In this document: positions 12,828 to 54,776 of the stretch, one piece after another
How positions within the stretch are numbered: the stretch's first letter is position 1
How the letters are laid out: the number at the start of each line of letters is the position of its first letter
Assembly: GCA_965223505.1 (NCBI GenBank)
Contig: CBDCWP010000038.1
Location: forward strand, 1-64,000
Direction: 5' to 3'
Origin: Planctomycetota bacterium
GTDB taxonomy: Bacteria > Planctomycetota > PLA2 > JAEUHO01
DNA length: 64,000 nt
Program-made: the position numbers and the translations under genes
Notes under the pieces: model-generated
Told to the model about the DNA's origin: nothing
The model's input: only the letters and a program-made list of their open reading frames with translations
The model's database searches: none

Positions 12828-12831
12828 ATTC

Positions 12832-14819: not shown

Positions 14820-14828
14820 ACGACCCCA

Positions 14829-23231: not shown

Positions 23232-23984
23232 ATGACGCTTCGTAGCTGCTTGACCAGCCTGATCGTGCTGGCCGCCCTGATCTGCGTCGCTCCCGCGGCA
23301 TTCGCCGAGGACGAGCCCCAGGGCAACGACATCCGCGCCAAGATCAAGGCGCAGATGGAGAAGATCCTGAAGCTGATGAAGGAGAACGAAGACGCTCTCA
23401 TCCAGCTCAGTGCCGGGAGCTCGGCGACGACCCGGAAGGTCGATGTGAAGGTCGACTCGCCCGACGGCGAGTCCGGCACCAGCGCCGGCTCGAAGGAAGA
23501 TCCTTCGTCGAAGGGCGAAGCGGTCGGCAAGAAGCTCGATGAGCTGTTGAAGGCGCACGCCGGCAGCGGCTCGATTCCGCCCGAGCTCGAAGAGCTCGTG
23601 CGCATGATCCCGACCTGAGACAGCTGCGGCGGCCAGTTTGGCGCGCCCAAGGACAAGCCGAGTCAGAGCCAGGGTCAGCAGAACCAGGCCGATCCGCGCG
23701 ACGGTCGGCAGAAGGACGAGGAACTTCGCAAGCAGGGCGAGCAGAACGAGCCGAAGAGCGGCGAGAAGTCGCCGAACGACCCGGCCGAGAAGCCCTACAC
23801 CGCAAAGAAGGAAGATCCGGTCGATCCCAAGGACGCCGAAGCCGCCAAGTGGCAGGGCTGGGCCGCGCAACTTCCGCCGGAAGTGCGCGATGCGATCGAC
23901 GGCGGCAAGCTCGAGCGCATCCCGCTCAAGTACCGCGAGACGGTTCGCAAGTACCTGCTCTGGCTGCAGAAGAACGCGAAGTAG
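23232..23984 (+). CDS. Secreted protein with in-frame TGA (codon 129) in a U-D-S-C motif, candidate selenoprotein, 250 aa
   Basis: SD GAGGAG and signal peptide. The frame stays open for 121 codons after TGA 23616-23618 and ends in the same YLLWLQKNAK as the paralogue. Confidence 0.8.
23628..23647 (+). promoter_or_regulatory. Candidate bacterial SECIS hairpin
   Basis: GGCGGCCA-GUU-UGGC(G)CGCC: 8-bp stem with one bulge, loop starting with GU 17 nt after UGA. Confidence 0.6.
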
Positions 23985-24146
23985 GGTCCCCGACGCCGAC
24001 CGTATCGAAGCCGCGACCACGCTGTGACCTGCGTACAACGATCGCCCCGGTGTGACGTTTCAATTCCTCCGAGGCCGGCCCCCTCGCCGGGTCGAACGCC
24101 GGAATCCGGGCTAGGATGAGCCTGCGAACGCCCGGTGGGAGCGAAC

Positions 24147-25298
24147 ATGCACCACAACGTCCAGCGACCGACGGTCCGCCGGATCGCCGTCCTTCTGGTG
24201 ATGTCGACGCTGGTGGTCTGCCTGGGCGGCAAGATCGACCTGCGCGACGCGCAAGCGCGCGACGAGGTGCGCCGCGGCGTGCCCGAGAACCCCATGCAGA
24301 GGCGCAATCGCCGCAGGGCGATCAAGCGCGGCTGCGACTTCCTCGCTTCGAAGCAGCGCACCGACGGCGGCTGGGGTGAGAACCGGGTCGTCGTCGCGTT
24401 GACGTCCCTGACGGTGCTCGCGCTGATGTCGAACGGGTCGACGGACGGCCGCGGCCCCCACGGGAAGCAGGTGCGCAAGGGCATCGACTTCCTGCTTCGC
24501 ATCGTGGAAGGGAAGGAAAAGCGCAAGAAGCGGTGGCACGAGGGCTACTTCGACTACCCCCAGGACAACACCTCGCGGATGCACGGCCAGGGCTACGCGA
24601 CGCTCGCGCTGGCCACGGCGCTCGGCACCTCGAGCAGCGAGCGCTACAACCGCATCAAGAGTGTCCTGAAGAAGGCGGTTGCGTGCATCGAGTACGCACA
24701 GACCACCACCGGCGGCTTCGGATACAAGCCGATGCCCAGCGCGGACCACGAGGGGAGCGTGACCGTGGCGGTCGCGCAGGGCCTGCGCGCGGCACGCGAC
24801 GCGGGCATCCTGATCAACAGCCAGGTGGTCCGAAAGGGGCTCCATTACTTGAAGCGCAGCCAGAAGCGAGACGGCTCGTTCAAGTACAGCACGCATCAAG
24901 ACCAATCGACGTACGCCCTGACGGCGGCGGCGTTGTCGTCTTTCTATCTCTACGGCGAGTACTCCGAGAAGGAGGTCATCGCCAAGGGCATCAGCTACAT
25001 GAAGACGCGGCTGCGCAGCCGCGGCCCGGATCTGAATTGGTACTACTACGGGCATTTCTATGCGGCGTGGACCGCGTGGCAGCACGACGGGCACACGTGG
25101 GAGAAGCGCGGGACCGAGAACTTCTGGGCCTTTTGGCAGGACGTGGTCTACACCGATCTCCTCGAGCAGAAGCAGCGGGAGGACGGTTCGTTCTATCAGG
25201 ACAACGGCCGTTACAACTTCGGCCCGGTTCTGAGCACGGCGTTCGCGGTGTTGACGTTGGCCATCCCGGACGAGGTCGTGCCGATCTTCCAGCGGTAG
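24147..25298 (+). CDS. Prenyltransferase/squalene oxidase repeat protein (second paralogue)
   Basis: QRTDGGW, MHGQGYATLALA, QTTTGGFGY, QKRDGSF, YYYGHFYAA, C-terminal VPIFQR. Confidence 0.85.
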   Translation: MHHNVQRPTVRRIAVLLVMSTLVVCLGGKIDLRDAQARDEVRRGVPENPMQRRNRRRAIKRGCDFLASKQRTDGGWGENRVVVALTSLTVLALMSNGSTDGRGPHGKQVRKGIDFLLRIVEGKEKRKKRWHEGYFDYPQDNTSRMHGQGYATLALATALGTSSSERYNRIKSVLKKAVACIEYAQTTTGGFGYKPMPSADHEGSVTVAVAQGLRAARDAGILINSQVVRKGLHYLKRSQKRDGSFKYSTHQDQSTYALTAAALSSFYLYGEYSEKEVIAKGISYMKTRLRSRGPDLNWYYYGHFYAAWTAWQHDGHTWEKRGTENFWAFWQDVVYTDLLEQKQREDGSFYQDNGRYNFGPVLSTAFAVLTLAIPDEVVPIFQR

Positions 25299-25299
25299 C

Positions 25300-25353
25300 G
25301 TAGGGGCAGCCCTTGTGGCTGCCGAATTGGGCGACCACGAGGGTCGCCCCTAC
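25300..25353. repeat. GTAG-family REP doublet (REPIN-like)
   Basis: GTAGGGGCAGCCCTTGTGGCTGCC-gaatt-GGGCGACCACGAGGGTCGCCCCTAC. Near-identical copy at 34351-34404. Confidence 0.85.
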
Positions 25354-25495
25354 TTCCGGAGCATGCGGGCCGGTCGGCCAACTGCCGAACCCCGCACCCG
25401 CATCCGCTCCCCCTCCCGCATCACACGTAACGAATCCGAAGGCAACCTGGGCGACCACTAGGTCTCGTGCACGTTCACGTCCACGCGACGCGGGT

Positions 25496-25522
25496 GTAGG
25501 GGCAGCCCTTGTGGCTGCCCAA
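25496..25522. repeat. Single GTAG REP unit (degenerate partner at ~25448-25467)
   Basis: GTAGGGGCAGCCCTTGTGGCTGCCC. Confidence 0.75.
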
Positions 25523-25552
25523 CGCGAAGCGCGACTGATGCCCCCCAAATTG

Positions 25553-25589
25553 AAAAAACGGCCCGGCGGGTCTCACTCCCACCGGGCCG
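25553..25589 (-). terminator. Intrinsic terminator of the small lipoprotein gene
   Basis: CGGCCCGGTGGG-N7-CCCGCCGGGCCG followed by T6 on the minus strand. Confidence 0.85.
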
Positions 25590-25602
25590 CTCTCTCGAAC
25601 TC

Positions 25603-25620
25603 GAGACCCGACCGGGTCTC
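25603..25620 (-). promoter_or_regulatory. Candidate SECIS hairpin with GGUC loop
   Basis: GAGACCC-GGUC-GGGUCUC perfect 7-bp stem, loop 24 nt after the second UGA, separate from the terminator. Confidence 0.55.
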
Positions 25621-25631
25621 CTAGGTGAGGT

Positions 25632-25847
25632 CTAGCCTCACCCCTTGCCGCCGCCTCACGAGCCGCCGCTCGGAGCGCCGCCTCCACCCGATGAAGGCGG
25701 AGGAGCGGCGGTGCCGCCACCCGTGCTCGGGGGCGGAGCGGCGCCGGCGCCGCTACCACCCGAACCGGAGCTCGAACGGTTGCCGGTGCAGGCCGCGATG
25801 GATACGACAAGCAAGAGAAGTCCCAACACCGTCAGGGTGCGTCGCAT
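25632..25847 (-). CDS. Small Gly/Ser/Pro-rich lipoprotein: 63 aa if the first TGA (25656-25658) is a stop, 71 aa ending SUGGGKGUG if both TGAs are recoded
   Basis: SD GGAGG 9 nt upstream. MRRTLTVLGLLLLVVSIAA-C lipobox. Own terminator. TGA GGC GGC GGC AAG GGG TGA GGC TAG. Confidence 0.75.
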
Positions 25848-25954
25848 GGGGTTTCGCCTCCGAATGTGGGTTTCCGAGCGCGCATGGTCGCAACACCCGA
25901 CGACACACGCAATCGGAAATCCCGAATACTTGTACAAACATGTATCTACGGGCC

Positions 25955-26200
25955 CTAGGGCTCGCCGGCGCCCTCGTCGCGCTGCGTCGCGTCGCGCTCC
26001 GCGAGCACTCGCAGCGCCTTCTCCGCTTGGCTGTCGTCGACGACGGACATCGTCGGCACGGTGGAGAGGTCGATCGCCGTCTCGCCGAGGGCGCCCACGA
26101 ATCCCTCGTTCGCGACGACGGCTTCGATGCCGTAGGAGACCAGCAGACCGAGAATCATGTGGGCCTCGAAAACGGTGGTCGAGTAGTCGACCCGCGTCAT
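25955..26200 (-). CDS. DUF2007-like small protein
   Basis: FEAHMILGLLVSYGIEAVVANE...QAEKALRVL. ATG overlaps the larE-like stop (ATGA). Confidence 0.7.
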   Translation of the reverse strand: MTRVDYSTTVFEAHMILGLLVSYGIEAVVANEGFVGALGETAIDLSTVPTMSVVDDSQAEKALRVLAERDATQRDEGAGEP

Positions 26201-27060
26201 GCGTCGGCGTCGTGCTCCGGTTCGGGACGGCCACGCAGCGTCTCGTTCAAGCTCCCGCTGCGAAAGCCGTCCATGTCGACACTGACGTAGGCGAAGCCCG
26301 CGGCGCGTACGCCTTCGATGGCTTTCTCCCGCACGCCGGGCGCAAGCAACGCGGGCAGATCCTCGAGCGGGACCTCGATCCGCGCGACGGGGTCGTGTAC
26401 GCGCACGCGGACGGTGCGAAAGCCCAGCTCTTTGAGTGCGCGCTCCGCGCGGTAGACGCGGTCGAGTCCGTCCTTCGTCACACGCGTACCGTACGGGAAC
26501 CGGCTGGACAAGCACGCCTCGGCCGGTTTGTCCCAGGTCGAGAGCCCGCGCGCCTTGGACAGGGCCCGCACCCACGGCTTCGTGACGCCGGCGTCCAGAA
26601 GCGGGGAGACGACGCCGTGCCGCTTCGCGGCCGCTACGCCGGGACGGTGGTCGCCGACGTCGTCGGCGTTGGTCCCGTCGAGCACGTGCGCCAGGCCGCG
26701 CGCATCCGCCAGTGCGCGAAACTCGCCGTACAGGTGGTCCTTGCAGTGGAAGCAGCGGTCCGGCGCGTTGCGACGAAACGCCTCGATGTCCGTCTCTCCC
26801 CCGTCGAGGGCCACGTGTTCGACGCCCGCGCAGCGGGCTTGCTCTCGCGCCGCCTCGAGCTCTTCGGGCGGCAGGCTCTCGGACCGGCTCGTGGCCGCCA
26901 AGGTCGCTCCGGGTCCCCAGGCCTCCGCGGCGAGATCCAACAGGAGGGCGCTGTCCGCACCACCGGAGAGCGCGACCACGCCACCGCCCTCATACCGGGC
27001 GAGTTCGGCGAAGACACGCGACGCGGCGTCCTGCGGGTCCTGGATGTTCTCGTCGGTCAT
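26197..27060 (-). CDS. larE: LarE-like ATP-dependent sulfur transferase (PP-loop family)
   Basis: SGGADS PP-loop, RCFHCK, DGTNADD..DHRPG, WDKPAEACLSSRFPYG, RVRVH, GFRSGSLN. Confidence 0.88.
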   Translation of the reverse strand: MTDENIQDPQDAASRVFAELARYEGGGVVALSGGADSALLLDLAAEAWGPGATLAATSRSESLPPEELEAAREQARCAGVEHVALDGGETDIEAFRRNAPDRCFHCKDHLYGEFRALADARGLAHVLDGTNADDVGDHRPGVAAAKRHGVVSPLLDAGVTKPWVRALSKARGLSTWDKPAEACLSSRFPYGTRVTKDGLDRVYRAERALKELGFRTVRVRVHDPVARIEVPLEDLPALLAPGVREKAIEGVRAAGFAYVSVDMDGFRSGSLNETLRGRPEPEHDADA

Positions 27061-27117
27061 CGAGAGAACAGACTACGCCACGCAGAGCCGCGGAGCCGCA
27101 GGGAACCGGCCCCATCG

Positions 27118-27152
27118 AAAACGGGGCGCCCTTCGTGTGAAGGGCGCCCCGC
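27118..27152 (-). terminator. Intrinsic terminator
   Basis: GCGGGGCGCCCTTC-ACAC-GAAGGGCGCCCCG followed by TTTT downstream of the 27180 gene. Confidence 0.75.
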
Positions 27153-27179
27153 GAGGCTGTCGATTCTGATCGTTCGCGA

Positions 27180-29996
27180 CTAGTTGTTCGTCGTGAAGTT
27201 GATGCAGAAGTCGTCGATGAAACCACCCGGATCGAACGGACCGATCGAGGCCGGCAGGAAGTACGTGTACCGCACCTGCAGGTACTCGTTTCCGCTGAAG
27301 GCGTTGAGGCCGTTCACGTTGGTGTAGTTCGGGGCGTTGTCGATACCGGAGTGCGAGAACGTGCCGACCACCTGCCAGGCCGTCGCACCGAGCAAGTCGG
27401 GCGTGCCGTCGGGAAGGATGTCGAACGAACGCGCCTCGACCTGGATGCAGACGCCGCCGTTGTTGGCGACCGCCGGGATGCCGGCGACGTAGTCGCTCAC
27501 GACCGGGTCTGCGTAGGTCGGGCCCGAGGGACCGTTGATGCCGGGCGCCGCAAGGAAGATGTTCGTCGTGACGACGGGCTCGAGCCCACCGCCCTGGAAC
27601 CGACCTGCGTCGAAGTTGCCGCGGTAGAAGCCGTTGCTGCCCTCAGTCGGAGTCACGGCTGCGCCGCCGAGACCGCTGATGATGCTGTCACCGTCTTCCA
27701 TGACCACACGGCCGATGGCGCCCGCGCCACCGTGGTTCTGCACGTTGCTGCTGTTCGCCTTCGGGGTGAAGCCGCCGCCGCCGCCCGCCGTCGTGATCGA
27801 CGTCGTAGCCGCAAGGACGATCTCGTTGGGCGTCAGAAGGCGGATGCCGCCACCCGAGCCACCGCCACCGCCGGCACCGCGTACGTAGACGGAGAACGAG
27901 CTGCCGTTGCCGCCCGAGCCGCCTGCCGCATCGATCGTGCCGAAGATGAAGATGTCACCCGAGGAGGTCACGTCGACGAAGCCGCCGCCCGCGCCACCGC
28001 CGCCACCCGTGGCGCGGTAGGCACTCGAGTTGTTCCAGGGACGCAGGTTGGCGAAGCCACCCGAGCCACCGCCCGAGCCCGCCTCCGGCGTCTGCAGCCT
28101 GCTACCGTTGTTGCCGACGGCCTCGTAGGTGAGACCCGCGTCGGGCAGACCGGAAGCAGTCAGCTTCAGCTCGTAGATGGTCCCCGTGTTGACGGACATG
28201 CCGGGCGTGCCGTCTTCGGCGTGCCCCGCGCCACCGCCACCGGCGGCCGTCATGTCCCAGGGGTTGTACTGGTTCGAGTTCTTGGTGCCGCAGGGGTTGC
28301 CGGCGAGACCGGCGCCGTCACCGCCCGGAGACGCCATGTTCGGGTCGTAGCCGGCCGAGCCGAAGCCCGCGTGACCGGCTTCGCCGAACTTGGGGTTCTG
28401 GTTGGCCTTCTCGGCGTTGCCGCCGTCGCCACCACCGGCGACGCCTTCGCCGCCCGCGCCACCGACGTCCGCGGCCTGGTAGGCCTGGCCGTTCTTGCCG
28501 TTGCTCTGAGGCGAGTTGCCGACGTTGTCGCCGCGCACCTTGAGCGTGCCGTTGTTCTCGATGACCACGTCGCCCTGGCTGAGAATGATCGCCGGGTTGC
28601 GGCCGATCACGCGCACCGTCGCACCACTGCGGATGCGGAACGTCGCGAACTCCCAGATGACCGCGGTCGAGCCGTCCGTCGAGTTGACGCAGATCTGAGC
28701 CGCGCCCGTATCGAGCTCCATGTCGGCGCCCGCATCGAAGTCGTCCTTGCCGTTGGCGTTCGCCTGCAGCGGGACGTTCGCGGCGCAGCCGCCGACGGCG
28801 TTCTGGTCGGCGGGCAGGGACGGATCCTCGAGGCTCGTGCCGTTGTCGCCGTCACCCGCGAAGAGCATGAAGCCCTGGGCCACGTTCGGCGCGCGCGCCG
28901 TGTCGTGATCGCCGGTGGTCTCGTCACCGAGCGCGCCCGGCTCGTTCGGGTTGTCGTCGTCATGCGTGAGGAGCTTCTTGCCGAACTGCGCCGGCGTGTT
29001 CTCGGTCGTGAACGACATCGTGAAGGGCGTCAAGGGCAGGCCCGCGAAGTCGACGACGTTGAACGTCAACCGAATGACGATCAGCGAGTTGTCCGGCCAC
29101 TGACCCGCAAGCGGTGTGATCGTGATGTCCGTCGCGCTCAACGTCTGGTTCAGCACGATCGAGGACGGGATGATCTGCGGCGTCGCCAGGGTGTTCTCGA
29201 CGTCCGCGCCCCAGGTGAAGGGGTCGTTCGGCGTCTGGTCCGAGGTGTCACTACCCGCGTAGAAGCCCGACGTGTTGTTGTTGGGCGCCGTCTGGCCGTT
29301 GCCGAGGATCGGGTCGCCGGTCGCGTACTGCTCGACGATGATGTTCTCGGCGCTGACCGAGCAAGGATCGAGGTTCTCGCTCATCGGCAGGAAGACCTGG
29401 TTCGTCGGGCCGATGGTGACGGCCTGCGCGCCGTTCGCCGGCACGACACCCGCGACGGTCACGGAAGGCGCAACGGCGACGACCTGGTCCTGGAACTTCT
29501 GCGGATCGTTGTCGAGACGCGTGTGGAACTCGTGGTTCGACGTGAAGTTCAGCTTCTGCCCCGACGTGTTCTGCACCGCGAACTCTTCGGGCCAACCGAT
29601 GACGGACACGCGGTACTGCGTATCCGGCTGGAAACCCGAGTTCGACAGGTCGCAGAGCGTGGGCAGCTGCGGCTCGAAGACCACGACGGAACCGTCACCG
29701 GCCAGGCGGAACTTGCCCGGGACCGTGAGGCCGAACGCGTCGCCCTGCCGGATCTGAATCGATGCCGGCGTGATGGTTGCAAGGTTGACCGGCTCGCTGA
29801 AGCGGAACTCCAGCGCGACGTTCAGTTGCAGGTTGTCAGTGCCGTCCTGGATGAAGCTGACCAGGACGAGTCCCTGGCCCGCTCCGCTGGGCCCGGGGCC
29901 GCCTGCCGTGCCGCCACAAGCGGGCGCCGCCAAGCCGATCCCGAGCACCGCGATGATGCAGGCCAGAATGCGAGTCATACGATTGGTGATGGCCAT
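27180..29996 (-). CDS. Large surface lipoprotein with Ig-like (Big_5-type) domains and Gly-rich region
   Basis: Signal peptide ending AAPA-CGG. FSEPV/MSENLD Ig-like motifs. Repeated [23 protein letters not shown]. Confidence 0.75.
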
Positions 29997-30327
29997 CTGC
30001 CGATCTCCGTTTGTTGGGTCCGAACCTCTGTTTGGTGGTGACTGCGACCTCGATACGCAGCCCCCTCCGGCATCCCGCAGGGTGCAACTCCCATACCGTC
30101 GCATACCCGGAATCCCATCCACCTGGACGGGGTGCTCCAACGGCTCGGGAACGCGGAGTTTAAGGGGGTTGAGCCCCATTCTCCAAGGGGAATGGCCCCC
30201 GCGCCCCACAACCGGAACGTTGGTCCGTGTGCGATATCGCACGAGTCGGATGAACGCCCGTCGCACGCCGCTTGTTACGGCCATGTTAGCTGGGGGCGTC
30301 GCCGGGCGACGGCGCATCGGTTCGACG

Positions 30328-31980
30328 TCAGACGCGGGCGGTCTGGCGGCCCACCACGTCGGCCAACCGCCGCTGACGTTGGGCGGATCCCAGCTCCCCC
30401 ACCGCCTCGTGGGCGCGCGCCAGGGCCTCGTAGCCGCGCGGATCGTCCGGCGCCGCGAGCACGTAGCGACGCAGCGGAAGCATCGCCTCGCGAGCCCGCC
30501 CGCAGCGCACGAGTGCCCGTCCGTAGTCGCGAAGCGCCGGGTCGTCCTCGGGAAGCACACGCGCAGCGGCGCGCCCGGCATTGACCGCGCGCAGGGTCTG
30601 GCCCGTCTGGAAGAGCCACTGCACGAGCAGGGACAGCGCCTGCGGGTGCCTTCGATTGCGGCGCAGGGCCGAGCGCAGACGCGCCCGCGCCAGGCCCAGC
30701 TTGCCCTGCTCGAGCGCCAGCTCCGCTGCGGCCGCCCACAACGACGGCACCTCCGGATTCCAGGAGAGGCCGCGAAGGAGGCCGCGCTCGGCGGCCTCCG
30801 GCCGCCCCTCCGCCAGCTGGGCGGCGGCGACGTCGAGATGCAGCTCCGGCTCCTCGGGATGGCGCCGGGCGGCGCGTGCGAGCACGCTCACCGCTTCGCG
30901 GCGGCGGCCCGAGCGTCCGAGGGAGCGGGCGAGCACGCGCGCATTCCGGATGTCGTCGGGGTCGAGACGCAGCGCCCGCCGCAGGGCACGGGCCGCTCGG
31001 ACGGGGCGGCCGAGCTCGAGCAGGGTCTCGCCGACGACGCGCCAGCTCGACGCACGGCGGGGGTGCGTCTGCAGCAGCCGTCGCAGCAGAGCGAGCCCGG
31101 CCCGGCGGTCGCCGTTGGCGATGTGCACCCGCGCGCCGAGGGCGACCACCTCCGGCTCGGGCGGCCAATCCTCGAACAGGGGGGCGAGCACGTCGCGCGC
31201 CCCGTCCGGGCGGCCGAGCTCGTTCAGGCTCTCGGCCCAGCGCGTACGGGCCTCGACGTACTCGGGATCGCCCTCCGCGGCCTCGCGATAGTGCTCCGCC
31301 GCGTCGGCCCAGCGCCCTTCACGGCGTGCGAGCTCGCCGAGCCCGTAGTGCGCATCGGTACGGAACCCCCCGTCGAGGGCCTTGAGGTACCAGTTGCGGG
31401 CGTCCGCGGGCCGGTCGAGCGCGGCATAGACGCGCGCCAGACCGACCGGCAGCTCCGGATGGTCGTCCGCGCGCAACCGCACCTGTTCCCAAGCCGAGAG
31501 CGCCTGGCTGGGCCGCCCCACGACGAGGTAGCCGACCGCGAGGTGCCGGAACACGTGCGGACAGGTCGGATCGAGCTCGACGACCCGCCGAGCGTGCTTC
31601 TCCGCGGACCGGATGTCGGCCTGGAGCGCGAAACAGTGCACGAGGTTGCAGTGGGCCTCTTCGAGCTCGTCGTCCAGCTCCTGCGCCTTGAGGAAGGCCC
31701 GGGTCGCGCGGGCGAGGTAGCCGAGGCGGCCGTAGCACAGCCCCAATCCGATCCAGGGCGCCGCGCTGGCGGGGCTCAGCGAGACGCACCGCCGGTAGCG
31801 CCGGATGGCGGCGCGCAGCTGATCGCTCTCGAGGTGGCAGTGCCCCAGGTACAGGTCGATGCGGGGGCTGATGACGCCGCGCCGGTCGAGGTTGCGAAGC
31901 ATCGTCCGCGCCACGCGCAGCTCACCCTCTTCGAAGCGTTCGACCGCCTTCGAAAGACGTCTGTCGGAGTCGTGCCACAT
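30328..31980 (-). CDS. Tetratricopeptide repeat protein
   Basis: Serial TPR motifs ([35 protein letters not shown]). Confidence 0.85.
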
Positions 31981-32169
31981 CCGGCGGAAGTCTCGCAACG
32001 CCGGGGGACACGCCCGTGGAGGGGAACGCGCCCCGGGAGGGCCGCTCGCGGTGCGGCGGGCCGCGAGAAAGCTTGGTGCGCGGCCCGTTCGCGTTCTAAC
32101 GTGCCGGATTCTGTGCCGGGTCCTGCGCAAGAACGCGCTCGATCGGGATCCGCACGTGGAGTTCAAGCC

Positions 32170-34322
<2,153 letters not shown>

Positions 34323-34329
<7 letters not shown>

Positions 34330-34349
34330 GCGGCTGCGCCGCCTACTTC
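34323..34349. terminator. Perfect 12-bp hairpin overlapping the fusA stop
   Basis: GAAGTAGGCGGC-TGC-GCCGCCTACTTC. No clear U-tract, so may be REP-like rather than a terminator. Confidence 0.4.
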
Positions 34350-34350
34350 C

Positions 34351-34404
34351 GTAGGGGCAGCCCTTGTGGCTGCCCAATTGGGCGACCACGAGAGTCGCCC
34401 CTAC
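34351..34404. repeat. GTAG-family REP doublet
   Basis: GTAGGGGCAGCCCTTGTGGCTGCCCAATTGGGCGACCACGAGAGTCGCCCCTAC. Confidence 0.85.
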
Positions 34405-42995: not shown

Positions 42996-43111
42996 GGAGA
43001 GCTCCAATTGACGGGCAGCCCAACAGGCTAGCAGATCCGCCGCGGCGGGGTGTCCAACGACAGGGCGCTGTTCAGCTCGAAAGACGAAGACCGTGCGAAC
43101 GTCCCGCGGTC

Positions 43112-45338: not shown

Positions 45339-45741
45339 ATCGGGTCCTCGCAATGCGATTCACTTCAGAGCGGCTGCGACCCAGGCCCTCGATTGGGCCC
45401 GAGTCCCGTCATTCGCCGGCGCGGTCCGCACGCATCCATTGCAGGGTGCCCAAGCCGAAGATGCCCCCGCTTGGGTGTGGCTGCGCGCGAACGTCGCCCC
45501 GAATGATGGCAAATGCCATGAGTGGGAAGCCCGTTCAGGAGGCCTCCCGGCGCTCTGCGCGGATGGAATGCTACGTCCTCCCCCGGCGCAGGCAACGAGA
45601 AACCACGGAAATGCCTGATCGACGCGTCGAATTCCGGTCCCTCCCGGCCCGAGGGCCCCGCGCAGACGTCGACGGGTCGCGGGCCGAGCGGCTACCTTGT
45701 GCAACCTTTCCCGCGGACTCCCCGCGGCCCTGGAACAGCTC

Positions 45742-47139
45742 ATGGACTTCGACGTTTCCACCCTCGGCCCGTGCCGCAAGAAGGTCTCGGTGACGATCTC
45801 CCCGGATCGCATCCAAGAAGCCTTCGACAAGAAGTACGACGAGATCAACGACAACGTGGCACTGCCGGGCTTCCGGCGCGGTCGCGCGCCCCGGCGCCTG
45901 CTCGAGAAGCGCTTTTCGGACAAGCTCGGCGACGAGGTGAAGGAAGAGCTCGTCAAGGCGGCCATGGAACAGCTCGTGGACGACAAGAAGGTCGAGCCGC
46001 TGGCCGCGCCCGAGATCGACATCGAGGCGCTCGAGCTCGATCCGAGCTCCGAGATGAAGTTCGAGTTCGAGCTGGTGACCAAGCCCGAGTTCGAGACGCC
46101 GAAGTACGCCGGACTCGAGGTCAAGGTGCCCCCGGTCGAGGTGACGACCGAGCACGAAGACAACGCGATCGACGACCTGCGGCGCCGCAGCGCGACGCTC
46201 GAGAACGCCGACACGACCGTCGACGACGGCGACGTGTTGATCCTCGACTGGGAAGCGCGCGACGGCGACAGCATCGAGTCGCAAGACACCAACGTCTACT
46301 ACCCCTTCGGCCGCGGCGTCCTGGCAGGCTTCGTCGTCGAAGGCTTCGACGACCAGCTGCGCGGCAAGAAGGTCGGCGCGGAGGCCACCGCGACCGTCCA
46401 GGTCGCCGCAGACGATCCGCGCGAGGAACTTCGCGGCCGGGAGCTCGCATTGACGGCGACGCTCAAGGAAGTGAAGCGGTACGTTCTGCCGGAGATCGAC
46501 GAAGCATTCTTGAAGCAGCACGACTACGACGACGCGGACGAGCTGCGCGCCGACATGAACAAGCAGCTCACCCGCGCGATGAAGCGCAACCAGGAGCGCG
46601 ACGCCGAGACACGCCTCGTCGATCAGATCGTCGACGCGGTCGAGATCGAGCTGCCTGAAGAGTTCGTCGAGCGCGAGCTCGAGACCTGGGCGCAGCGCAA
46701 GCGAATGTCGCTGCAGGTCGAGAACGTCGCCGAGGATGAGATCGCCAAAGCGGTCGACGCCGACGCCGACGACGCCAAGTCGTCGATCGAGCAGGACATG
46801 CGCAAGTTCTTCCTGCTGGATCGCATCGCGGACGAAGAGGAGATCGAGGCGACGGAAGCCGACATGTCGGCCGCGATCCAGGAGATGGCCATGGCTTACG
46901 GCCGGCCGTTCGAGGAGATCGCCGGCTCGTTCCGCGACCCCAACCGCCTGAGCGAGCTCAGGACGATGATTCGCCATCGCAAGGCGCGCGAGCGCATGCG
47001 GACCGTCGCGAAGATCGTCGAAGACGCGTCGCTCGCGGAGCCGAAGAAGGCGGCGAAGAAGAAGGCGGCCAAGAAGAAACCCGCCGCGAAGAAGAAGGCC
47101 GCCAAGAAGAAGGCGGCGAAGAAGAAGACGGCGAAGTAA
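45742..47139 (+). CDS. tig: Trigger factor
   Basis: LPGFRRGRAP signature, FKBP-like middle domain, position upstream of clpP-clpX, Lys/Ala-rich tail. Confidence 0.92.
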   Translation: MDFDVSTLGPCRKKVSVTISPDRIQEAFDKKYDEINDNVALPGFRRGRAPRRLLEKRFSDKLGDEVKEELVKAAMEQLVDDKKVEPLAAPEIDIEALELDPSSEMKFEFELVTKPEFETPKYAGLEVKVPPVEVTTEHEDNAIDDLRRRSATLENADTTVDDGDVLILDWEARDGDSIESQDTNVYYPFGRGVLAGFVVEGFDDQLRGKKVGAEATATVQVAADDPREELRGRELALTATLKEVKRYVLPEIDEAFLKQHDYDDADELRADMNKQLTRAMKRNQERDAETRLVDQIVDAVEIELPEEFVERELETWAQRKRMSLQVENVAEDEIAKAVDADADDAKSSIEQDMRKFFLLDRIADEEEIEATEADMSAAIQEMAMAYGRPFEEIAGSFRDPNRLSELRTMIRHRKARERMRTVAKIVEDASLAEPKKAAKKKAAKKKPAAKKKAAKKKAAKKKTAK

Positions 47140-47178
47140 CCCGAATCAAGGTCTCGAACCAACAGCGTGGAAGCACAC

Positions 47179-47868
47179 ATGTCATTCGACCCGTACGCGC
47201 ACGGCAACGAGCAATTCACCAAGGGCCCGTGGGGCTACATCCCCAACCCGACGATCATCGAGCGAACCGGTCGTGGTGAGCGCCACTACGACATCTGGAG
47301 CCGGCTGCTGGAGGACCGCATCATCTTCCTCGGCACGCCGATCAACGACACGGTCGCCAACTTCCTGACCGGGCAGCTGCTCTTCCTCGAGAAGGCGGAT
47401 CGCAACCGCGACGTGCACCTGTACATCAACAGCCCCGGCGGCTCGATCAGCGCCGGCCTCGCCGTGTACGACACGATGCAGTACATCTCGTGCCCGGTTG
47501 AGACCGTGTGTATCGGGAGCGCGGCCAGCATGGGCGCGCTGCTGCTCGCGGCGGGCACGCCCGGCAAGCGCTACGCGCTGTCGAACGCGCGCATCATGAT
47601 CCACCAGCCGTGGGGCGGTGCGCAGGGCACGGCGGCCGACATCGAGATCCAGGCCGAGGAGATCCTCGAAGCGCGGCGCATCATCAACGGCATCCTCGCC
47701 AGCCATACGGGCCGCCCGATCGAGGAGATCGAGCGCGACACCGAGCGCGACAAGTACCTCGCCGCGAACGACGCCCGGGAGTACGGCATCATCGACGAGG
47801 TGCTGGAGCCCAAGAAGGGCCCGGGCGCCGACGCGAACGACGGAAAGTCGGGCGAAAACGGCAAGTAA
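47179..47868 (+). CDS. clpP: ATP-dependent Clp protease proteolytic subunit
   Basis: [24 protein letters not shown]. Confidence 0.96.
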
Positions 47869-47997
47869 CAGGACGTGGCCCGTCGTTTGCCGGATGTAAA
47901 CACCGGTCCCTGCATCGGTTGCACATCGGAACCTGGGCGCGGCTGCGCCGCACGCTAGACTTACGGCGCCCCGAAAGCTCAGCGGAGAGATCAGCGG

Positions 47998-49304
<1,307 letters not shown>

Positions 49305-49308
<4 letters not shown>

Positions 49309-50354
49309 CCCCCTCGGACGCGCAGACCGTCTCCCTCTCTGCGATGTCGCCGGCGGAGATCGAAGCGCTCGTCGTGAGCTGGGACGAGCCCGCCTACCGC
49401 GCGAAGCAGATCTTCCAGGCCGTGCAGCGCGACGGCGTGCTGGATCCGGATCGCATCACGACGTTGCCGCTGGCGCTGCGCGAGCGCATGCAGGCGTCCT
49501 GCACGCCGGCGACGAAGCTGGTCGAGGCGCAGACGTCCGCCGACGGCACGCGCAAGTACCTCTTCGAGCTTCGCGACGGGAAGCGCGTCGAGTCGGTGCT
49601 CATTCCCGAGGGCGACCGCGCGACGGTATGCGTCTCGGCCCAGGTCGGGTGCCCGATTGCCTGCGTGTTCTGCGCGTCGGGCGTCAAGGGCCTGATTCGC
49701 AACCTCGATGTCGCCGAGATCGCGGAACAGCTGCTTCACGTCGCCGCCGACCTCGGCAAGCGGCCCACCAACATCGTGATGATGGGCATGGGCGAGCCGC
49801 TGCTCAATCTGAAGAACGTCGCGGCGGCGATTCGGCTCTGGACCCACGAGCAGGGCATGAACTTCTCGCCGCGGCGCATCACGGTCTCGACGGCCGGCAC
49901 GCCCGCGAAGATCGACCAGCTTGCGGAGATGGCGCTCGGCGTCCAGCTGGCGATCTCGTTGCACGCGCCCAACGACGAGGTGCGCGCCGAGCTGGTTCCG
50001 GGCAGCCCGCAGGGGCGCGTTCGGGGACTCGTCGATGCCGCCGCGCGATTCGCCAAGTCCACCCGCCGCGATGCGACGGTCGAGTACGTGCTGATCGGCG
50101 GGCTGAACGACCGCCCGGAGCACGCCCGCGACCTGGCGGACGCGGTGCGCGGCCGGCACATCCACGTCAATCTCATTCCGCTCAACCCCGTCGGGCACCG
50201 TCCGGACCTGAGACCACCGTCGGACGTCGCGGCGGAGGGGTTCGCGCGCTACCTCAAGGAACGCGGCGTGTCGGTCACGCTGCGCACGCAGCGCGGCGAG
50301 GACATCGACGCCGCGTGCGGACAGCTTGCGTTGGAGCGCTCTCTCAGCGAGTAG
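49305..50354 (+). CDS. rlmN: 23S rRNA/tRNA m2A methyltransferase (radical SAM)
   Basis: [36 protein letters not shown]. Confidence 0.93.
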
Positions 50355-50398
50355 CGAATCCGGTTCGCGGCGCGCGCCGTTCCGCGTAGCTTGCCCCG

Positions 50399-50728
50399 AT
50401 GGACGTCACCGAGGACCTCGTTCGCCACGTCGCGCAGCTGGCGCGTCTCGATCTCACCGAGGAAGAGGTGCGTTCGATGCAACCCCAGCTGGCGCGCATC
50501 TTCGAGCACGTCGAGGGGCTCCAGTCACTCGACGTCGGCGACGCGGACCCGGCGACCCTCGCCCCCATCGACCTGGAGGCGCTTCGGGACGACGTCGAAG
50601 GCCCGACGCTGACGACGCGCGAGGTGATGGGCAACGCGCCGGATCACGACGGCTTCTTCATCGTCGTGCCGCGCTTCTTCGACGACGACGGCGGCGCCTC
50701 CGACGGCGAAGACGGGGACGCGCCGTGA
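50399..50728 (+). CDS. gatC: Asp/Glu-tRNA amidotransferase subunit C
   Basis: VRHVAQLARL, LRDD, NAP...FFIVPR. Confidence 0.93.
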   Translation: MDVTEDLVRHVAQLARLDLTEEEVRSMQPQLARIFEHVEGLQSLDVGDADPATLAPIDLEALRDDVEGPTLTTREVMGNAPDHDGFFIVVPRFFDDDGGASDGEDGDAP

Positions 50729-52209
50729 CGCACCCGCTCGACACGTCCGTCGCCGAGATGGCCCGCCGCGTGCGCGATCCGGACGACGACCTGACCGCGC
50801 GCGCGCTCGTCGACGAGAGCCTGCGCCGCATCGAAGCCCTCGACGAGCGCGTCAACGCGTTCCTGTGCACGACGGCCGAGCTCGCGCGCGATCAGGCGGG
50901 CGCCGTCGACGCGGCCGTGACGGCAGGCAAGGACGTCGGCGCGCTGGCGGGCGTGCCGTTGGCGGTGAAGGACAACCTGGCCGTTCCGGGCGTGCCCCTG
51001 ACGTGCTCGTCGAAGATCCTCGGGGACTACGTGCCGCCGCGTTGGGCGACGAGCGTCGAGCGCGCCGTTGCCGCCGGCGCGTGCATCGTCGGCAAGACCA
51101 ACCTGGACGAGTTCGCGATGGGCTCGTCGACCGAGAACTCCGCCTTCGGCCCCACGCGCAACCCGTTCGACCTCGAGCGGGTGCCGGGCGGTTCGTCGGG
51201 CGGCAGCGCCGCGGCGGTGGCCGCCGGCATGGTGCCGCTCGCCCTGGGCAGCGACACGGGCGGCTCGATCCGCCAGCCCGCGGGACTGTGCGGCATCACG
51301 GGCATCAAGCCGTCGTACGGACGCGTTTCGCGCAACGGTCTCGTGGCCTTCGCGTCGAGCCTCGACCAGGTCGGGCCGCTGGCGCGCTCGGTGGACGACG
51401 CGACCACGTTGCTGGATGTGATCGCCGGCCCCGATCCGCTCGACGCCACGACGGTAGCGTACGACCACGGTGTGTCGAGCAGCACGGCCGACGACGTGCT
51501 GTCCGGTCTGCGCGTCGGGCGCGTCGAGGAGTTCGCGCTGGCAGGCGACGAGTACACCGACGCCCGCGAGTCGGTGGAGGCCGTTCGCGAGCGGCTCTTC
51601 GATGCGGGCGCGACCGACGTGCCGCTGTCGATGCCGATCACGTCGGGTTCGATCCCGATCTACTACGTCGTGGCGCCGGCGGAGGCATCGAGCAACCTCG
51701 CGCGGTTCGACGGCGTGCGCTACGGCATCCGCGAGCGCGGCGACAGCTTGCAGGACCTGTACGCGCGCACGCGCGACGCGGGGTTCGGCGCCGAGGTCAA
51801 GCGCCGCATCCTGATCGGCACGTTCGCGCTGTCCGCGGGCTATGCGGACGCGTACTACAAGAAGGCGATGTCGGCACGCGCGGCCTTACGCGACGGGTTC
51901 CGCGCGGCGTTCGAGGAGGCGGACGTGATCGTCTCGGGAACGACGCCCCAAAGCGCGTTCCGCATCGGCGAGAAGACGGACGACCCGCTCTCGATGTATC
52001 TGTGCGACGTGCTGACGGTCGCCGCCAACCTGGCCGGCGTTCCGGCGATGTCGATTCCCTGTGGCACCGACGCGAGCGGACTGCCGCTGGGCTTGCAGGT
52101 GTGGGCGCCGCTCGGCCGCGAAGACCGCATGATCGCGGTCGCGCGCGCCATCGAAGCCATGTTGCCGAATGCGCCGCGTTCTCCATTGGCCGAGGAGGTG
52201 TCCGCATGA
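50725..52209 (+). CDS. gatA: Asp/Glu-tRNA amidotransferase subunit A
   Basis: AVKDN, GKTNLDEFAMGSSTE, GGSSGGS, GSDTGGSIRQP, SSNLARFDG. Confidence 0.96.
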   Translation: MTHPLDTSVAEMARRVRDPDDDLTARALVDESLRRIEALDERVNAFLCTTAELARDQAGAVDAAVTAGKDVGALAGVPLAVKDNLAVPGVPLTCSSKILGDYVPPRWATSVERAVAAGACIVGKTNLDEFAMGSSTENSAFGPTRNPFDLERVPGGSSGGSAAAVAAGMVPLALGSDTGGSIRQPAGLCGITGIKPSYGRVSRNGLVAFASSLDQVGPLARSVDDATTLLDVIAGPDPLDATTVAYDHGVSSSTADDVLSGLRVGRVEEFALAGDEYTDARESVEAVRERLFDAGATDVPLSMPITSGSIPIYYVVAPAEASSNLARFDGVRYGIRERGDSLQDLYARTRDAGFGAEVKRRILIGTFALSAGYADAYYKKAMSARAALRDGFRAAFEEADVIVSGTTPQSAFRIGEKTDDPLSMYLCDVLTVAANLAGVPAMSIPCGTDASGLPLGLQVWAPLGREDRMIAVARAIEAMLPNAPRSPLAEEVSA

Positions 52210-53648
52210 GCACGCCTCGGCTCATCGTCGGCATGGAGGTGCACCTGCAGCTCAAGACGAAGACGAAGTGCTTCTCCGCGAGCCCGGTGAACTTCGGCGC
52301 CGATCCGAACTCGCTGACGGATCCCGTCGTGCTGGGCCTGCCGGGCGCGCTGCCGGTCCTCAACCGCGAGGCCGTGCGACTGGCCGTGCGCACGGGCTTG
52401 GCGTTGGGGTGCGAGATCGCCGACGTCACGAAGTGGGACCGCAAGAACTACTTCTATCCGGACCTTCCGAAGGGCTACCAGATCAGCCAGTACGACAAGC
52501 CCTTGTGCGTGAACGGCGCGGTCGAGATCGACGACGACGAGGGCAATCCGAAGCAGATCCGCATTCGCCGCGCGCACCTCGAAGAGGACACGGGCAAGTC
52601 GACCCACGACGAAGGCGGCGCGAAGTCGCGGGTGGACCTGAACCGCGCGGGCACGCCGCTGCTCGAGATCGTGTCGGAGCCGGACATCGCTTCGTCGGGC
52701 GAAGCGGCGCGATACCTCGACGCCTTGCGCGAGATCGTCGCGTACGTGGGCACGTCGGACGCCAACATGGAGGAGGGCAACCTGCGCTGCGAGCCGAACA
52801 TCAACCTGGTGTTCGAGAACGGCGACCGCTCCCCCATCGTCGAGGTCAAGAACGTCAACTCGGTGCGCAACGTGGCGAACGCGATCGAGTACGAGATCGT
52901 GCGCCAGACGAAGGCGTACGAGGAGAACGGCGAGACGATCGAGAACACACCGCGCTCGACGCGCGGATGGCACGACGACAACGAAGCGACGGTGCACCAG
53001 CGCTTCAAGGAATCGGAGGACGACTACCGCTACTTCCCGGAGCCCGATCTGCCGCCGCTGCGCATCGCGCGGGACTTCGTGGAGACGGAACGCGCTGCCT
53101 TGCCGGAGCTCGCGCGGGCGCGGCGGGCGCGTTACGAGGCCGAGTATTCACTCTCGACGTACGACGCGGGCGTGTTGACGGCCGATCCGGCGGTGTCGAA
53201 CTGGTTCGAGGCGGTGCTGGACGTCGGTCGCGACCCCAAGGCGGCGGCGAACTGGGTGACGGGCGAGCTGATGCGTCACTTGAACGAGCACAAGCTCTCG
53301 TTGGCGGACGTGAAGCTGGCGCCGGCGGGCCTCGGCGAGCTGATCGACCTGCAGTCGGCTGGCACGATCAACGCGCGGACGGCGAAGGAGCTGTTCCGCG
53401 AGATCGTGTCGACGGGCGAGTCGGCCAAGCAGCTCGTGGACGAGCGCGGGTTGGGGCAGGTCTCGGACACGGATGCGATTCGCGCGGCGTGCGAGGCGGC
53501 GATCGTGGCGCAGCCGGCGGCGGCCCAGGACTTCAAGTCGGGCAACGACAAGGCGATCGGCCGACTCATCGGCGAGACGATGAAGGCGCTCGGCGGCCGC
53601 GGTGACCCGGCGCTGGTGCGCAAGGTTCTGATCGAGCTGTTGCGCTAG
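52206..53648 (+). CDS. gatB: Asp/Glu-tRNA amidotransferase subunit B
   Basis: GMEVHLQL, RKNYFYPDLPKGYQISQ, HLEED, DYRYFPEPDL. Confidence 0.97.
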   Translation: MSTPRLIVGMEVHLQLKTKTKCFSASPVNFGADPNSLTDPVVLGLPGALPVLNREAVRLAVRTGLALGCEIADVTKWDRKNYFYPDLPKGYQISQYDKPLCVNGAVEIDDDEGNPKQIRIRRAHLEEDTGKSTHDEGGAKSRVDLNRAGTPLLEIVSEPDIASSGEAARYLDALREIVAYVGTSDANMEEGNLRCEPNINLVFENGDRSPIVEVKNVNSVRNVANAIEYEIVRQTKAYEENGETIENTPRSTRGWHDDNEATVHQRFKESEDDYRYFPEPDLPPLRIARDFVETERAALPELARARRARYEAEYSLSTYDAGVLTADPAVSNWFEAVLDVGRDPKAAANWVTGELMRHLNEHKLSLADVKLAPAGLGELIDLQSAGTINARTAKELFREIVSTGESAKQLVDERGLGQVSDTDAIRAACEAAIVAQPAAAQDFKSGNDKAIGRLIGETMKALGGRGDPALVRKVLIELLR

Positions 53649-53703
53649 CGGTCCGGTTGCGTGAGTGGGGGGCAGCTCCTCTCCGAGAAAGGCTCGGGGC
53701 TGT

Positions 53704-53721
53704 GCGTCGTGACCACGGCGC
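53704..53721 (-). promoter_or_regulatory. Candidate SECIS hairpin with GGUC loop
   Basis: GCG(C)CGU-GGUC-ACG(A)CGC, loop 18 nt after the UGA at 53733-53735. Confidence 0.5.
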
Positions 53722-53732
53722 CCGCCCTAGCC

Positions 53733-54776
53733 TCAGGCCGGGCCGTTCGGGTCCGGCGGCACCCACTCGTCGGTCTTGCGACGGTAGACGTACACGCTGT
53801 CGCAGTCCGAACACTGGAGTCGCAGTAGGCCGGACTTGTACGTCCCGATCATCACTTCGTGAGTGTCGAGCTTGACCTCGATTCGTCCGTCGCGGATGCG
53901 CCACCTGAAGTCCGCGAGATCACCCTTCGCCGACGGCGCGCGCGGCGGCGGCTCCTCGACGACCGGTTGGGGCGAGCCGCCACACCCTCCGCACGCCGCG
54001 TCCGGCACCTCCGAACCGGTAGGCGGCGCCGGAGCAGCAAGCGGACCGTCGTGCCTGCACTCGCCGTTGTCAAGGAGCGTGATCTGGCGCATGGCGCTGC
54101 TGTTGAAAGCCTTCTGCGCCTGCGTCTCGGGATCCTCAGCGGACGACGCGTAGATCGCGCGCCGCGTCTCGGTTTCGTCGAGCACCCAGATCCCCGCCAG
54201 GTCCGCTTGCGAGATCGTCGGGGCATCGTCGGTGAAGATCAGAATCGCGGCGACGACGGCGGCGAGCACGCCCGTACCCGCAAGGACGAGCTTCTTCGGA
54301 AACGGCGGCGCGGGTGGCGGCGGCGGCGGTGGGAGCGGCTCGACGACGACGCCGGCGGCGTCTTCTTGCGAGGGGTCGGCCGTTCGACGAACCGCTCGCG
54401 CAAGCCGGTCGATGTGCTTCTCGAGATCGCCGTCGAGGGCGTTGAGCCACTGCTTGCGACCCAGGTAGTACGCCAGGCCTTCGGCAGGTTCGACGTCGTC
54501 GATTCGGAACGGAATCACCTTCGACTCGTGCCGCGCCGCCTGGTCGAGCTCTCGCTCGACATGCTGCGACCCATTCGAGAACTTCGAGAACACGAGGACG
54601 AACACCGGCGCGGAGTTGATGCCGCGAACGATCGCCGCCGCAAAGTTCTCGCCCAGTCGCACGTCGCGCGGCGCGATCCAGCACTTCACGTCGCGAGACT
54701 CGAGCCCCGCGCAGATCTGTTCCGCAATCTGCTTGTCCTCGGACCCGTAGCTGATGAACACGTCCCGCTTCGTCAT
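53733..54776 (-). CDS. TIR-domain protein with TM helix and Cys-containing C-terminal domain; may extend to TAG 53727 via UGA recoding
   Basis: DVFISY, CWIAPRD, SQHVERE. Pro-rich linker, TM helix, ACGGCGG and CSDC motifs. Confidence 0.88.
   Translation of the reverse strand: MTKRDVFISYGSEDKQIAEQICAGLESRDVKCWIAPRDVRLGENFAAAIVRGINSAPVFVLVFSKFSNGSQHVERELDQAARHESKVIPFRIDDVEPAEGLAYYLGRKQWLNALDGDLEKHIDRLARAVRRTADPSQEDAAGVVVEPLPPPPPPPAPPFPKKLVLAGTGVLAAVVAAILIFTDDAPTISQADLAGIWVLDETETRRAIYASSAEDPETQAQKAFNSSAMRQITLLDNGECRHDGPLAAPAPPTGSEVPDAACGGCGGSPQPVVEEPPPRAPSAKGDLADFRWRIRDGRIEVKLDTHEVMIGTYKSGLLRLQCSDCDSVYVYRRKTDEWVPPDPNGPA

Follow-up and report, generated by a model that had tools for sequence, protein, structure and literature searches.

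Several bacterial protein families have selenocysteine (Sec) among their last few residues. Here we examine three unrelated genes for exported proteins, all within one stretch of a Planctomycetota metagenome-assembled genome (MAG), whose in-frame UGA codons are very probably recoded to Sec by the ordinary bacterial route. The window, by which we mean the whole stretch of 64,000 nucleotides (G000:C38:1-64000, about 68% G+C; G000 is the source genome), was compared with a set of 41 related genomes, the source genome being counted among the matches to gene 1. According to the available part of Haft and Gwadz (2022; bioRxiv 10.1101/2022.07.06.499078), SaoC (the CD2366 family Cys-Cys-COOH (seleno)protein, NF040734) belongs to the SAO system of anaerobes and comprises signal-peptide proteins or lipoproteins that end in CC or CU, with UGA-UAG at the end of the gene and a GGU-loop hairpin past the stop; the same source also cites KCU-COOH DUF466 proteins. 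The tails described below resemble SaoC in being borne by exported proteins or lipoproteins, in their C-terminal Cys/Sec pair, in a UGA beside the real stop that annotation misses, in a G-loop hairpin past that stop and in the prevalence of Cys forms. They differ in that SaoC ends in C-U-stop, whereas the tails end in U-G-stop and have their partner residue, Cys or Sec, 3-8 positions farther upstream. In addition, gene 2, which bears one of these tails, matches no Pfam or NCBIfam family (NCBIfam E up to 0.01), comes from another phylum and lies in a window with no SAO neighbourhood.

Mammalian thioredoxin reductase (TrxR) ends in Gly-Cys-Sec-Gly. Rat TrxR (Sec498-Gly499) was made in E. coli with a 17-nt E. 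coli-type selenocysteine insertion sequence (SECIS), ggttgcaGGTCtgcacc, whose loop is GGUC, as set out in the part of PMC3834832 available to us. In the tails, as in TrxR, Sec stands one residue from the end, before a Gly and the stop, on a flexible arm that also bears a partner Cys; the GGUC loop of the construct is shared too, and one relative ends in ...P-C-U-G-stop. They differ in being natural and bacterial rather than engineered or eukaryotic, in having the partner usually 6-7 residues off instead of adjacent, and in lacking a flavoprotein body; the similarity is functional and not one of homology. Gene 1 can be set beside the UxxC thioredoxin-fold selenoproteins (TlpA-like, Redoxin, AhpC-TSA, Thioredoxin_7), of which this genome has many exported examples. 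It shares their U-x-x-C and signal peptide but has neither a thioredoxin fold nor a Pfam domain, being modeled as helices and disorder.

In its available part, a 2026 review in Applied and Environmental Microbiology (PMC13188914) lists 119 families in Table 1, including UXX-star, KCU-star, SaoC and selenobacteriocin; the star families are UXX-star 1 and 2 (NF041114, NF041211), KCU-star/DUF466 (NF033934), GUXX-star and UXPK-star. Like genes 2 and 3, these have Sec a few residues from the C-terminus and a SECIS at or past the stop, and their products are routinely truncated in databases. No star or SaoC NCBIfam model matches genes 1 to 3 at E up to 0.01; they work alike but are not members. Neither a lipoprotein tail of the U-G-stop type nor a secreted IP-x-U-x-S-C protein nor a TIR protein is listed in that table by name or motif, although the supplements of primary papers could hold such entries. 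The words Planctomycet, PVC and Verrucomicrobi are absent from the available text of the review, and a literature word search found no paper joining "selenoproteome" with "Planctomycetota." The mechanism is ordinary; the families are new, and their kind (terminal-Sec) is known.

The initial annotation of the window had reported four in-frame TGAs in three genes, each followed by a hairpin. All four are present, at 23616-23618 on the plus strand (gene 1), at 25656-25658 and 25638-25640 on the minus strand (gene 2) and at 53733-53735 on the minus strand (gene 3), and the hairpins sit where they had been placed, with loops at +20, +23, +27 and +21, respectively (each offset gives the start of the loop, with the U of UGA as reference). 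Thus, each UGA has a stem-loop with a G/U-containing apical loop in the range of about 16-37 nt past it. The TGA stops at 747, 12747, 15977, 18467 and 56287, which had been cited as controls, lack a hairpin of at least 6 bp in that range. Export features were read by eye from the sequence for all three genes. The case for Sec, made from sequences only, is one of comparison (conservation, pairing with Cys and covariation) and not of single-sequence folding energy. It is firm for genes 1 and 2, as predictions, and makes Sec probable for gene 3, the outer domain of which is without a homologue.

Gene 1 (23232..23984, plus strand; ATG at 23232, TAG at 23982-23984) is a read-through open reading frame (ORF) of 250 amino acids. 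Across the TGA it reads ...ELVRMIPT-U-DSC-GGQFG... and then continues for 121 codons. The predicted product has a signal peptide (...VAPAAFA/EDEP, by eye), a long helix, a flexible U129-D-S-C132 segment and a C-terminal helical region; in an AlphaFold2 model of low confidence (pLDDT 63, pTM 0.24), composed of helices and disorder, the U-x-x-C likewise lies in a flexible stretch. Neither Pfam nor NCBIfam (E up to 0.01) yielded a family. The read-through protein has matches in 31 of the 41 genomes, and the match contains exactly one TGA in 11 of them (G000, G001, G003, G004, G008, G011, G012, G014, G015, G020 and G022). In all 11 of these orthologs, which come from different genera, the columns of U129 and C132 are kept and the site reads IP-x-U-x-[S/G]-C. 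A hairpin can be formed at the same offset in 11/11 (by eye), with (A)GUU(N), GGUC or GGGC as the loop, and the stems vary between clades (CGGGCC/GGCUCG, GGCUC/GAGCC, GCGGGUC/GAUCCGC). In gene 1 itself, this SECIS-like hairpin spans 23625..23649, within the ORF, and has a bulged stem and the loop GUU at 23636-23638. On these grounds we firmly predict that gene 1 is a selenoprotein gene, with its UGA read as Sec.

Immediately upstream lies a paralog of gene 1 (22344..23132, plus strand), which by sequence comparison has no TGA and no Cys at the site (...RMIPTKKGQG...), with K and G in the columns of U129 and C132. The C-terminus ...YLLWLQKNAK is common to both. Tandem pairs of gene 1 and the paralog also occur in G001 and G003, and in a protein atlas the paralog falls in unnamed Planctomycetota clusters. 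Public predicted proteins for gene 1 are fragments of 135-159 amino acids; the gene calls stop at the TGA. The suggestion that such products, and terminal U-G additions in particular, escape standard annotation is borne out by these fragments and by the U-G-stop tails found on several unrelated exported proteins in relatives.

Gene 2 (25632..25847, minus strand; ATG at 25847, TAG at 25632-25634) encodes a 71-amino-acid lipoprotein precursor with the lipobox Cys20 (...VVSIAAC; relatives have LGAC, LAAC, VTAC, LAGC and similar, by eye only). It ends in ...PSGGS-U64-GGGKG-U70-G71-TAG. The first UGA (Sec64) corresponds to Cys in most family members, and the second (Sec70, penultimate), which is followed by GGC TAG, corresponds to Cys in paralogs that end in ...GK[GAS]-C-G-TAG. 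The first is followed by the hairpin GGGUGAGG-CUAGA-CCUCACCU (25623..25643), which includes the second UGA. The second is followed, in the 3' untranslated region (UTR), by the SECIS-like hairpin GAGACCC-GGUC-GGGUCUC (25603..25620), which scores 28.8 bits with model R2 (see below). Farther 3' is an intrinsic-terminator-like stem with a U-tract (25553..25590; by eye and fold). Since this separate terminator lies downstream, the GGUC hairpin is not the terminator of gene 2.

Relatives of this tail were sought with the pattern TGH-GGN-GGN-N9-12-TGA-GGN-TAG, the reversed pattern serving as a control. There were 13 matches in 8 of the 41 genomes, all of one family, and 2 matches of the control. All 13 end low-complexity ORFs; a lipobox leader is present in 11, one is cut by a contig end and one has no leader in the printed stretch. 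Among 185,579 species genomes (one each), the pattern occurred at 17 loci, 12 of which are Planctomycetota MAG loci carrying 15 tails. The other five (L063, L071, L074, L077 and L078; Verrucomicrobia/Opitutaceae MAGs) were dropped because they represent an unrelated repeat, FCAFCAFCGGLKA-stop-G-stop; it has AT-rich flanks and is an accidental match to the pattern, with no lipoprotein tail.

The 20 distinct Sec tails collected from Planctomycetota MAGs have the consensus [S/A]-[C/U]-GG-x(1-2)-K-[G/A]-U-G-stop. Their first position is TGA in 5 and TGC or TGT in 15, and the downstream GG-x-K-G/A-U-G codons stay in frame. When the GGN-TAG requirement was removed, the pattern was found at 15 places, comprising 11 known tails and one that ends in GGC-TAA. 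Thus, GGC plus TAG or TAA stands behind the TGA in 12/12 tails examined, a set that leaves out three of the 15 (one with an out-of-frame gap, one in a distant family and one in G024). The bodies that bear such tails are tiny lipoproteins, TSIT...WTTP lipoproteins, Cys/Pro-rich lipoproteins and a membrane protein (C21:126415-127188, the ortholog of L069).

Pairing of TGA with Cys, which the initial annotation had made a check on its Sec reading together with the presence of the sel genes, is found in the family of gene 2, where Cys occupies the aligned position in some homologues at both Sec sites. The Sec tail ...CGGGKG-U-G-TAG at C40:224338-224364 lies about 500 nt from a tandem paralog that ends in ...CGGGKG-C-G-TAG (C40:224860-224886); the two share a signal peptide/leader and a CCCDDPCAPD body, and there is a similar pair in G001. 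A pattern for Cys tails gave 10 matches against 34 for its reversed control, so that the count is meaningless and the matches were judged by sequence: six clearly belong to the family, two more come from lipoproteins ending in CGGCGGP[AG]GCG, and the remaining two are doubtful. We firmly regard gene 2 as a predicted selenoprotein gene and a member of a new tail family.

Past the terminal UGA, 20/20 distinct Sec tails have a perfect hairpin of 6-10 bp, the loop of which lies at +20 to +27; this loop is GGUC(G) in seven tails, GUC in five and GUU in three. RNAalifold predicted no pairs on a plain MAFFT alignment of the 20 tails because the tail spacers vary in length, and models R1 and R2 were therefore built. 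In the model-fitted alignment of 21 matches, 7/7 stem pairs change on both sides and 131/131 cells pair. The alignment has a covariation score of 0.595, versus 0.172 for shuffled alignments (0/500 reach it), and slid controls pair in 31-43% of cells; as the alignment was fitted to the structure of the model and leans toward it, these values are support and not proof. In the 41 genomes, R2 found 19 matches in 11, all of the same family. Seven of these places were new, six of them being U-G-stop ends on other exported proteins: C-F-T-U-G (three cases, in three genera), C-A-T-U-G, P-C-U-G and GKG-U-GGDSAGKG-U-G. Thus, on sequence grounds, U-G-stop with a 3'-UTR hairpin is a recurrent candidate module in this lineage.

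Genome-wide scans turned up further predicted selenoproteins with the same loop types and did not reveal a genome-wide excess of short tails after TGA. A single codon between the first in-frame stop and the next stop was found in 16 of 1,722 cases for TGA, 28 of 2,377 for TAG and 5 of 234 for TAA. GGUC-loop hairpins, of which there are 694 in 10.3 Mb (both strands), follow coding-like TGA, TAG and TAA stops 8, 1 and 1 times, respectively; for ten control loops the TGA count is 0-5, and the excess is modest. Terminal tails are a handful per genome and not a pervasive class.

Gene 3 (53727..54776, minus strand; ATG at 54776, TAG at 53727-53729) encodes 349 amino acids. A TIR_2 domain (PF13676; 76.7 bits versus the Pfam cutoff of 28) occupies residues 6-125, and a membrane helix, placed by eye, spans residues 163-181 (nt 54234-54290), with KK on its N-terminal side. 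The NCBIfam TIR equivalogs of Thoeris and retrons were matched weakly, in the TIR region alone and far below the cutoffs; no defense system was therefore assigned. The 168-residue C-terminal part forms the outer domain and ends in ...PPDPNGPA-U348-G349, with UGA as the probable penultimate Sec348. This UGA stands in the same 9-mer, TGAGGCTAG (TGA-GGC-TAG), as the lipoprotein tails; common to genes 2 and 3, it occurs six times in the genome, four of them at coding-ORF ends, each followed by a hairpin. The UGA of gene 3 is followed by an extended stem-loop of 46 nt (53689..53734; minimum free energy, -23.9 kcal/mol), which encloses the apical stem GCGCCGU-GGUC-ACGACGC with its loop GGUC at 53711-53714. 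Only 1.6% of TGA triplets in the genome (1,726/106,468) end a coding-like ORF. Sec at the UGA of gene 3 seems likely, on the strength of these shared sequence features.

The genome has the machinery for Sec insertion that the initial annotation had asked to be confirmed. ARAGORN located one tRNA-Sec, at C43:10939-11037, and the matches to selB (336 bits), selA (507 bits) and selD (338 bits) are all above the curated cutoffs. The selD gene itself carries the canonical in-frame TGA, at GGU-AAK. A selA match is present in 37 of the 41 related genomes, and in 36 the match exceeds the cutoff. G004 and G007, the two genomes of the same family with no selA match, carry selB, and G004 also carries tRNA-Sec; therefore, there is no Sec-free sister group, and the comparison with sisters lacking sel genes that had been envisaged has no material. 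UGA is still a normal stop, as had been claimed, and there is no genome-wide reassignment: TGA ends 1,726 of the 4,347 coding-like ORFs, TAG 2,386 and TAA 235. TAG is thus the commonest stop in this genome of 68% G+C, and it is also the true stop behind 19 of 20 U-G tails. RF1, but not RF2, recognizes TAG.

TGAs with coding-like flanks were sought in a crude scan, which gave many U-x-x-C sites. When 26 further candidates were read through, the best stretch of a Pfam domain spanned the TGA in 17, and most of these 17 have signal peptides. The spanning domains are AhpC-TSA/Redoxin, Thioredoxin_7, DsbD, DUF3179, CMD, ArsC, T4_deiodinase, LysR_substrate and FG-GAP. Hairpins with the same loops, GGUC, GUC or GUU, stand 20-32 nt past their UGAs. 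The genome is thus predicted to have at least 23 selenoprotein genes (these 17, selD, gene 1 and four tails), chiefly for exported thioredoxin-fold proteins, in keeping with the earlier suggestion of a selenoprotein-rich lineage. The available part of the 2026 review (PMC13188914) quotes records of 57 and 63 per genome, and the count here lies below them.

Several genes outside the window drew attention during this survey. An OxyR-like LysR regulator (L098, G000:C33:14172-15131, minus strand) has an in-frame TGA, ...LLLEDGH-U-LRDQAWAIC, followed by a GGUC-loop hairpin; LysR_substrate spans the TGA, and the best NCBIfam match is OxyR NF008361 (282 bits versus a cutoff of 329). We take the TGA position to be that of the sensing Cys199 of E. 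coli OxyR. A secreted protein with two HMA domains (L100, G000:C33:25832-26527, plus strand) reads ...DDLT-U-VVC... in its first metal-binding motif and scores 89 bits, against a cutoff of 95, with metal-binding (seleno)protein NF041115. In a secreted WD40-repeat protein (G000:C30, near 182958, plus strand), two in-frame TGAs stand two codons apart (...YPPGKG-U-GP-U-VASVAF...), and the ORF runs about 280 codons more. A secreted protein with no Pfam or NCBIfam match (L102, G000:C30:299674-301278, minus strand) has a TGA just past its signal peptide (...TIPAEAG-U-CGGGGSKGS...) and a GGUC-loop hairpin. A lipoprotein near G000:C41:14259 (minus strand) ends in ...FNAGG-C-GPGG-U-GIPN-stop, possibly a near-terminal Cys...Sec tail; behind it stand the hairpin AUCGGC-AGUU-GCCGAU and a distinct terminator. 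The word OxyR is absent from the available text of the 2026 review (PMC13188914).

Several results weigh against recoding to Sec. Folded singly, the four hairpins have z-scores of -0.39, -1.50, -1.16 and -2.13 and are not beyond their shuffles; 28-29% of coding-like ORF ends have a perfect 6-bp hairpin in the same interval, and Rfam at gathering thresholds gave 0 matches in the whole window. Tails of up to four codons with a GU-loop hairpin are not enriched after TGA (37/571, compared with 34/759 for TAG and 2/33 for TAA). Cys-form tails have a post-stop hairpin in 5/10 cases, one with a GGUC loop, so the hairpin is not exclusive to Sec. The hairpin after the first UGA, considered as a Sec-specific signal, was rejected, since one of at least 6 bp is found in 5/5 tails with Sec first and in 8/15 with Cys first. 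A Cys form of gene 1 was found neither among the 40 relatives nor in the protein search, and in the paralog the residue is Lys. These weak energies and common hairpins, together with public gene calls that end at the TGA, are what might be expected if the TGAs were ordinary stops, nonsense mutations or assembly errors, gene 1 a pseudogene, gene 2 slightly shorter and the hairpins terminators or GC-rich noise. We consider this extremely improbable. In 11 genomes from different genera, the TGA of gene 1 occupies a single column and is backed by 121 conserved codons; GGC and a stop are kept in every tail examined, and five tails with a first TGA go on for 5-6 conserved in-frame codons; Cys paralogs exist, and the hairpins have no U-tracts. 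The TGAs are also unchanged in the contigs of three sequencing runs from two samples of one study, among which the source sample may be included.

It is likewise highly unlikely that the UGAs are read through by a near-cognate or suppressor tRNA (for Trp, Cys or Gly) instead of Sec, or that UGA is reassigned in the lineage. The identity of the inserted residue is deduced, and the UGA is always followed by G, both of which would suit readthrough by another tRNA. But a codon that ends 1,726 of 4,347 coding-like ORFs is not reassigned, and the sole tRNA found with the anticodon UCA is tRNA-Sec. Moreover, the same type of hairpin follows UGA at the catalytic Cys positions of the 17 Pfam-supported redox proteins and in selD, and the codons that pair with TGA are those for Cys rather than those for Trp or Gly. 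For gene 3 alone there is a more serious alternative, namely, that its TGA is a true stop and that GGC-TAG and the GGUC stem-loop are there by chance or are the functionless captured 3' end of a tail gene. Its outer domain has no homologue in the 40 relatives or among 5.8 billion proteins, in which only the TIR part was matched. There is no Cys within 20 residues of the TGA, the apical stem has one C.A mismatch, five of 200 shuffles fold as well as the native stem-loop, and R2 missed the gene (R1 gave 8.4 bits). The TGA-N-stop arrangement as such is not enriched either. Yet gene 3 is alone among the 4,347 coding-like ORFs in ending in TGA-GGC-TAG, and the other copies of the 9-mer at ORF ends are demonstrable Sec tails. 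A rough estimate, reckoned by hand from counts that include the GGUC hairpins of the genome, puts the joint signature arising by chance at 1e-4 to 1e-3 per genome, and U-G-stop tails are found on several unrelated exported proteins of the lineage. We therefore hold a true stop in gene 3 to be rather unlikely, and recoding of UGA to Sec in all three genes is the explanation that we prefer.

We infer that Sec is actually inserted at these UGAs. SelB with Sec-tRNA(Sec) would be recruited by a hairpin with a G/U-containing apical loop 20-27 nt past the UGA. In gene 1, where the hairpin lies within the ORF, Sec would belong to a redox motif, U-x-x-C, that sits on a flexible stretch of a secreted protein; the gene is part of a MoxR/DUF58/BatA/DUF4175 envelope cluster. 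The products of genes 2 and 3 would have Sec as the penultimate residue: the ribosome would read UGA-GGC and halt at UAG, leaving the hairpin wholly in the 3' UTR. Gene 2 would have a second Sec, Cys in most relatives, 6-7 residues upstream on a Gly-rich arm. The tail may form a Cys-Sec or Sec-Sec selenenylsulfide or a chelating pair, and its targets, beyond the cytoplasmic membrane, may be oxidants or soft metals. We place a redox role somewhat below an even chance, metal binding slightly lower and any other role well behind.

The neighborhood of gene 1 includes an aerotolerance-type envelope cluster (748-18464 of the window), lying upstream. It comprises MoxR (AAA_3; 748-1860), DUF58 (1993-2922), a BatA-like gene, a GATase1-like gene, a gene for a 1,698-amino-acid PQQ/beta-propeller protein, an extracytoplasmic function (ECF) sigma factor (14232-14816), FecR (14820-15974) and DUF4175 (15978-18464). 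A gene for a 1,285-amino-acid coiled-coil protein is also found upstream of gene 1. Downstream is a gene for a secreted squalene-cyclase-like protein, which also stands behind the G011 ortholog. Between it and gene 2 lies a high-copy repeat (25268-25361 and 25456-25549), with a summed contig depth of about 270-340 in runs X1 and X3 and 50-160 in X2, about 4 beside the repeat in X1 and X3, and many joints. The palindromic unit of the repeat (translated as ...VGATFVVAQ...GCPY) recurs elsewhere in the genome.

These genes add at least two well-supported predicted selenoprotein families, the secreted U-x-x-C protein and the [C/U]-x5-6-U-G lipoproteins, together with further U-G-stop tails. In its available part, the 2026 review (PMC13188914) puts the bacterial SECIS inside coding regions, unlike the SECIS-like elements of the tails, which are confined to the 3' UTR. 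Sec-Gly-stop with a bacterial-type SECIS would be the natural counterpart of the arrangement built for rat TrxR in E. coli. We tentatively suggest, as a possibility with the odds against it, that the U-G-stop tail and 3'-UTR hairpin constitute a portable natural "selenol tag," a self-contained 3' cassette (tail codons, UGA-GGC-UAG and SECIS) grafted onto many unrelated exported proteins. If so, its recipients would be tiny and Cys/Pro-rich lipoproteins, a membrane protein, Pro/Arg-rich secreted proteins and the TIR transmembrane protein. Each would gain a membrane-tethered Cys-Sec or Sec-Sec arm for extracytoplasmic redox or soft-metal chemistry, and in the TIR protein a selenol sensor on the outside would be linked to TIR signaling in the cytoplasm. 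Gene callers truncate or split such genes; the exported redox and metal-handling proteomes of such MAGs would therefore be under-read, and a model such as R2 may be able to find the tails.

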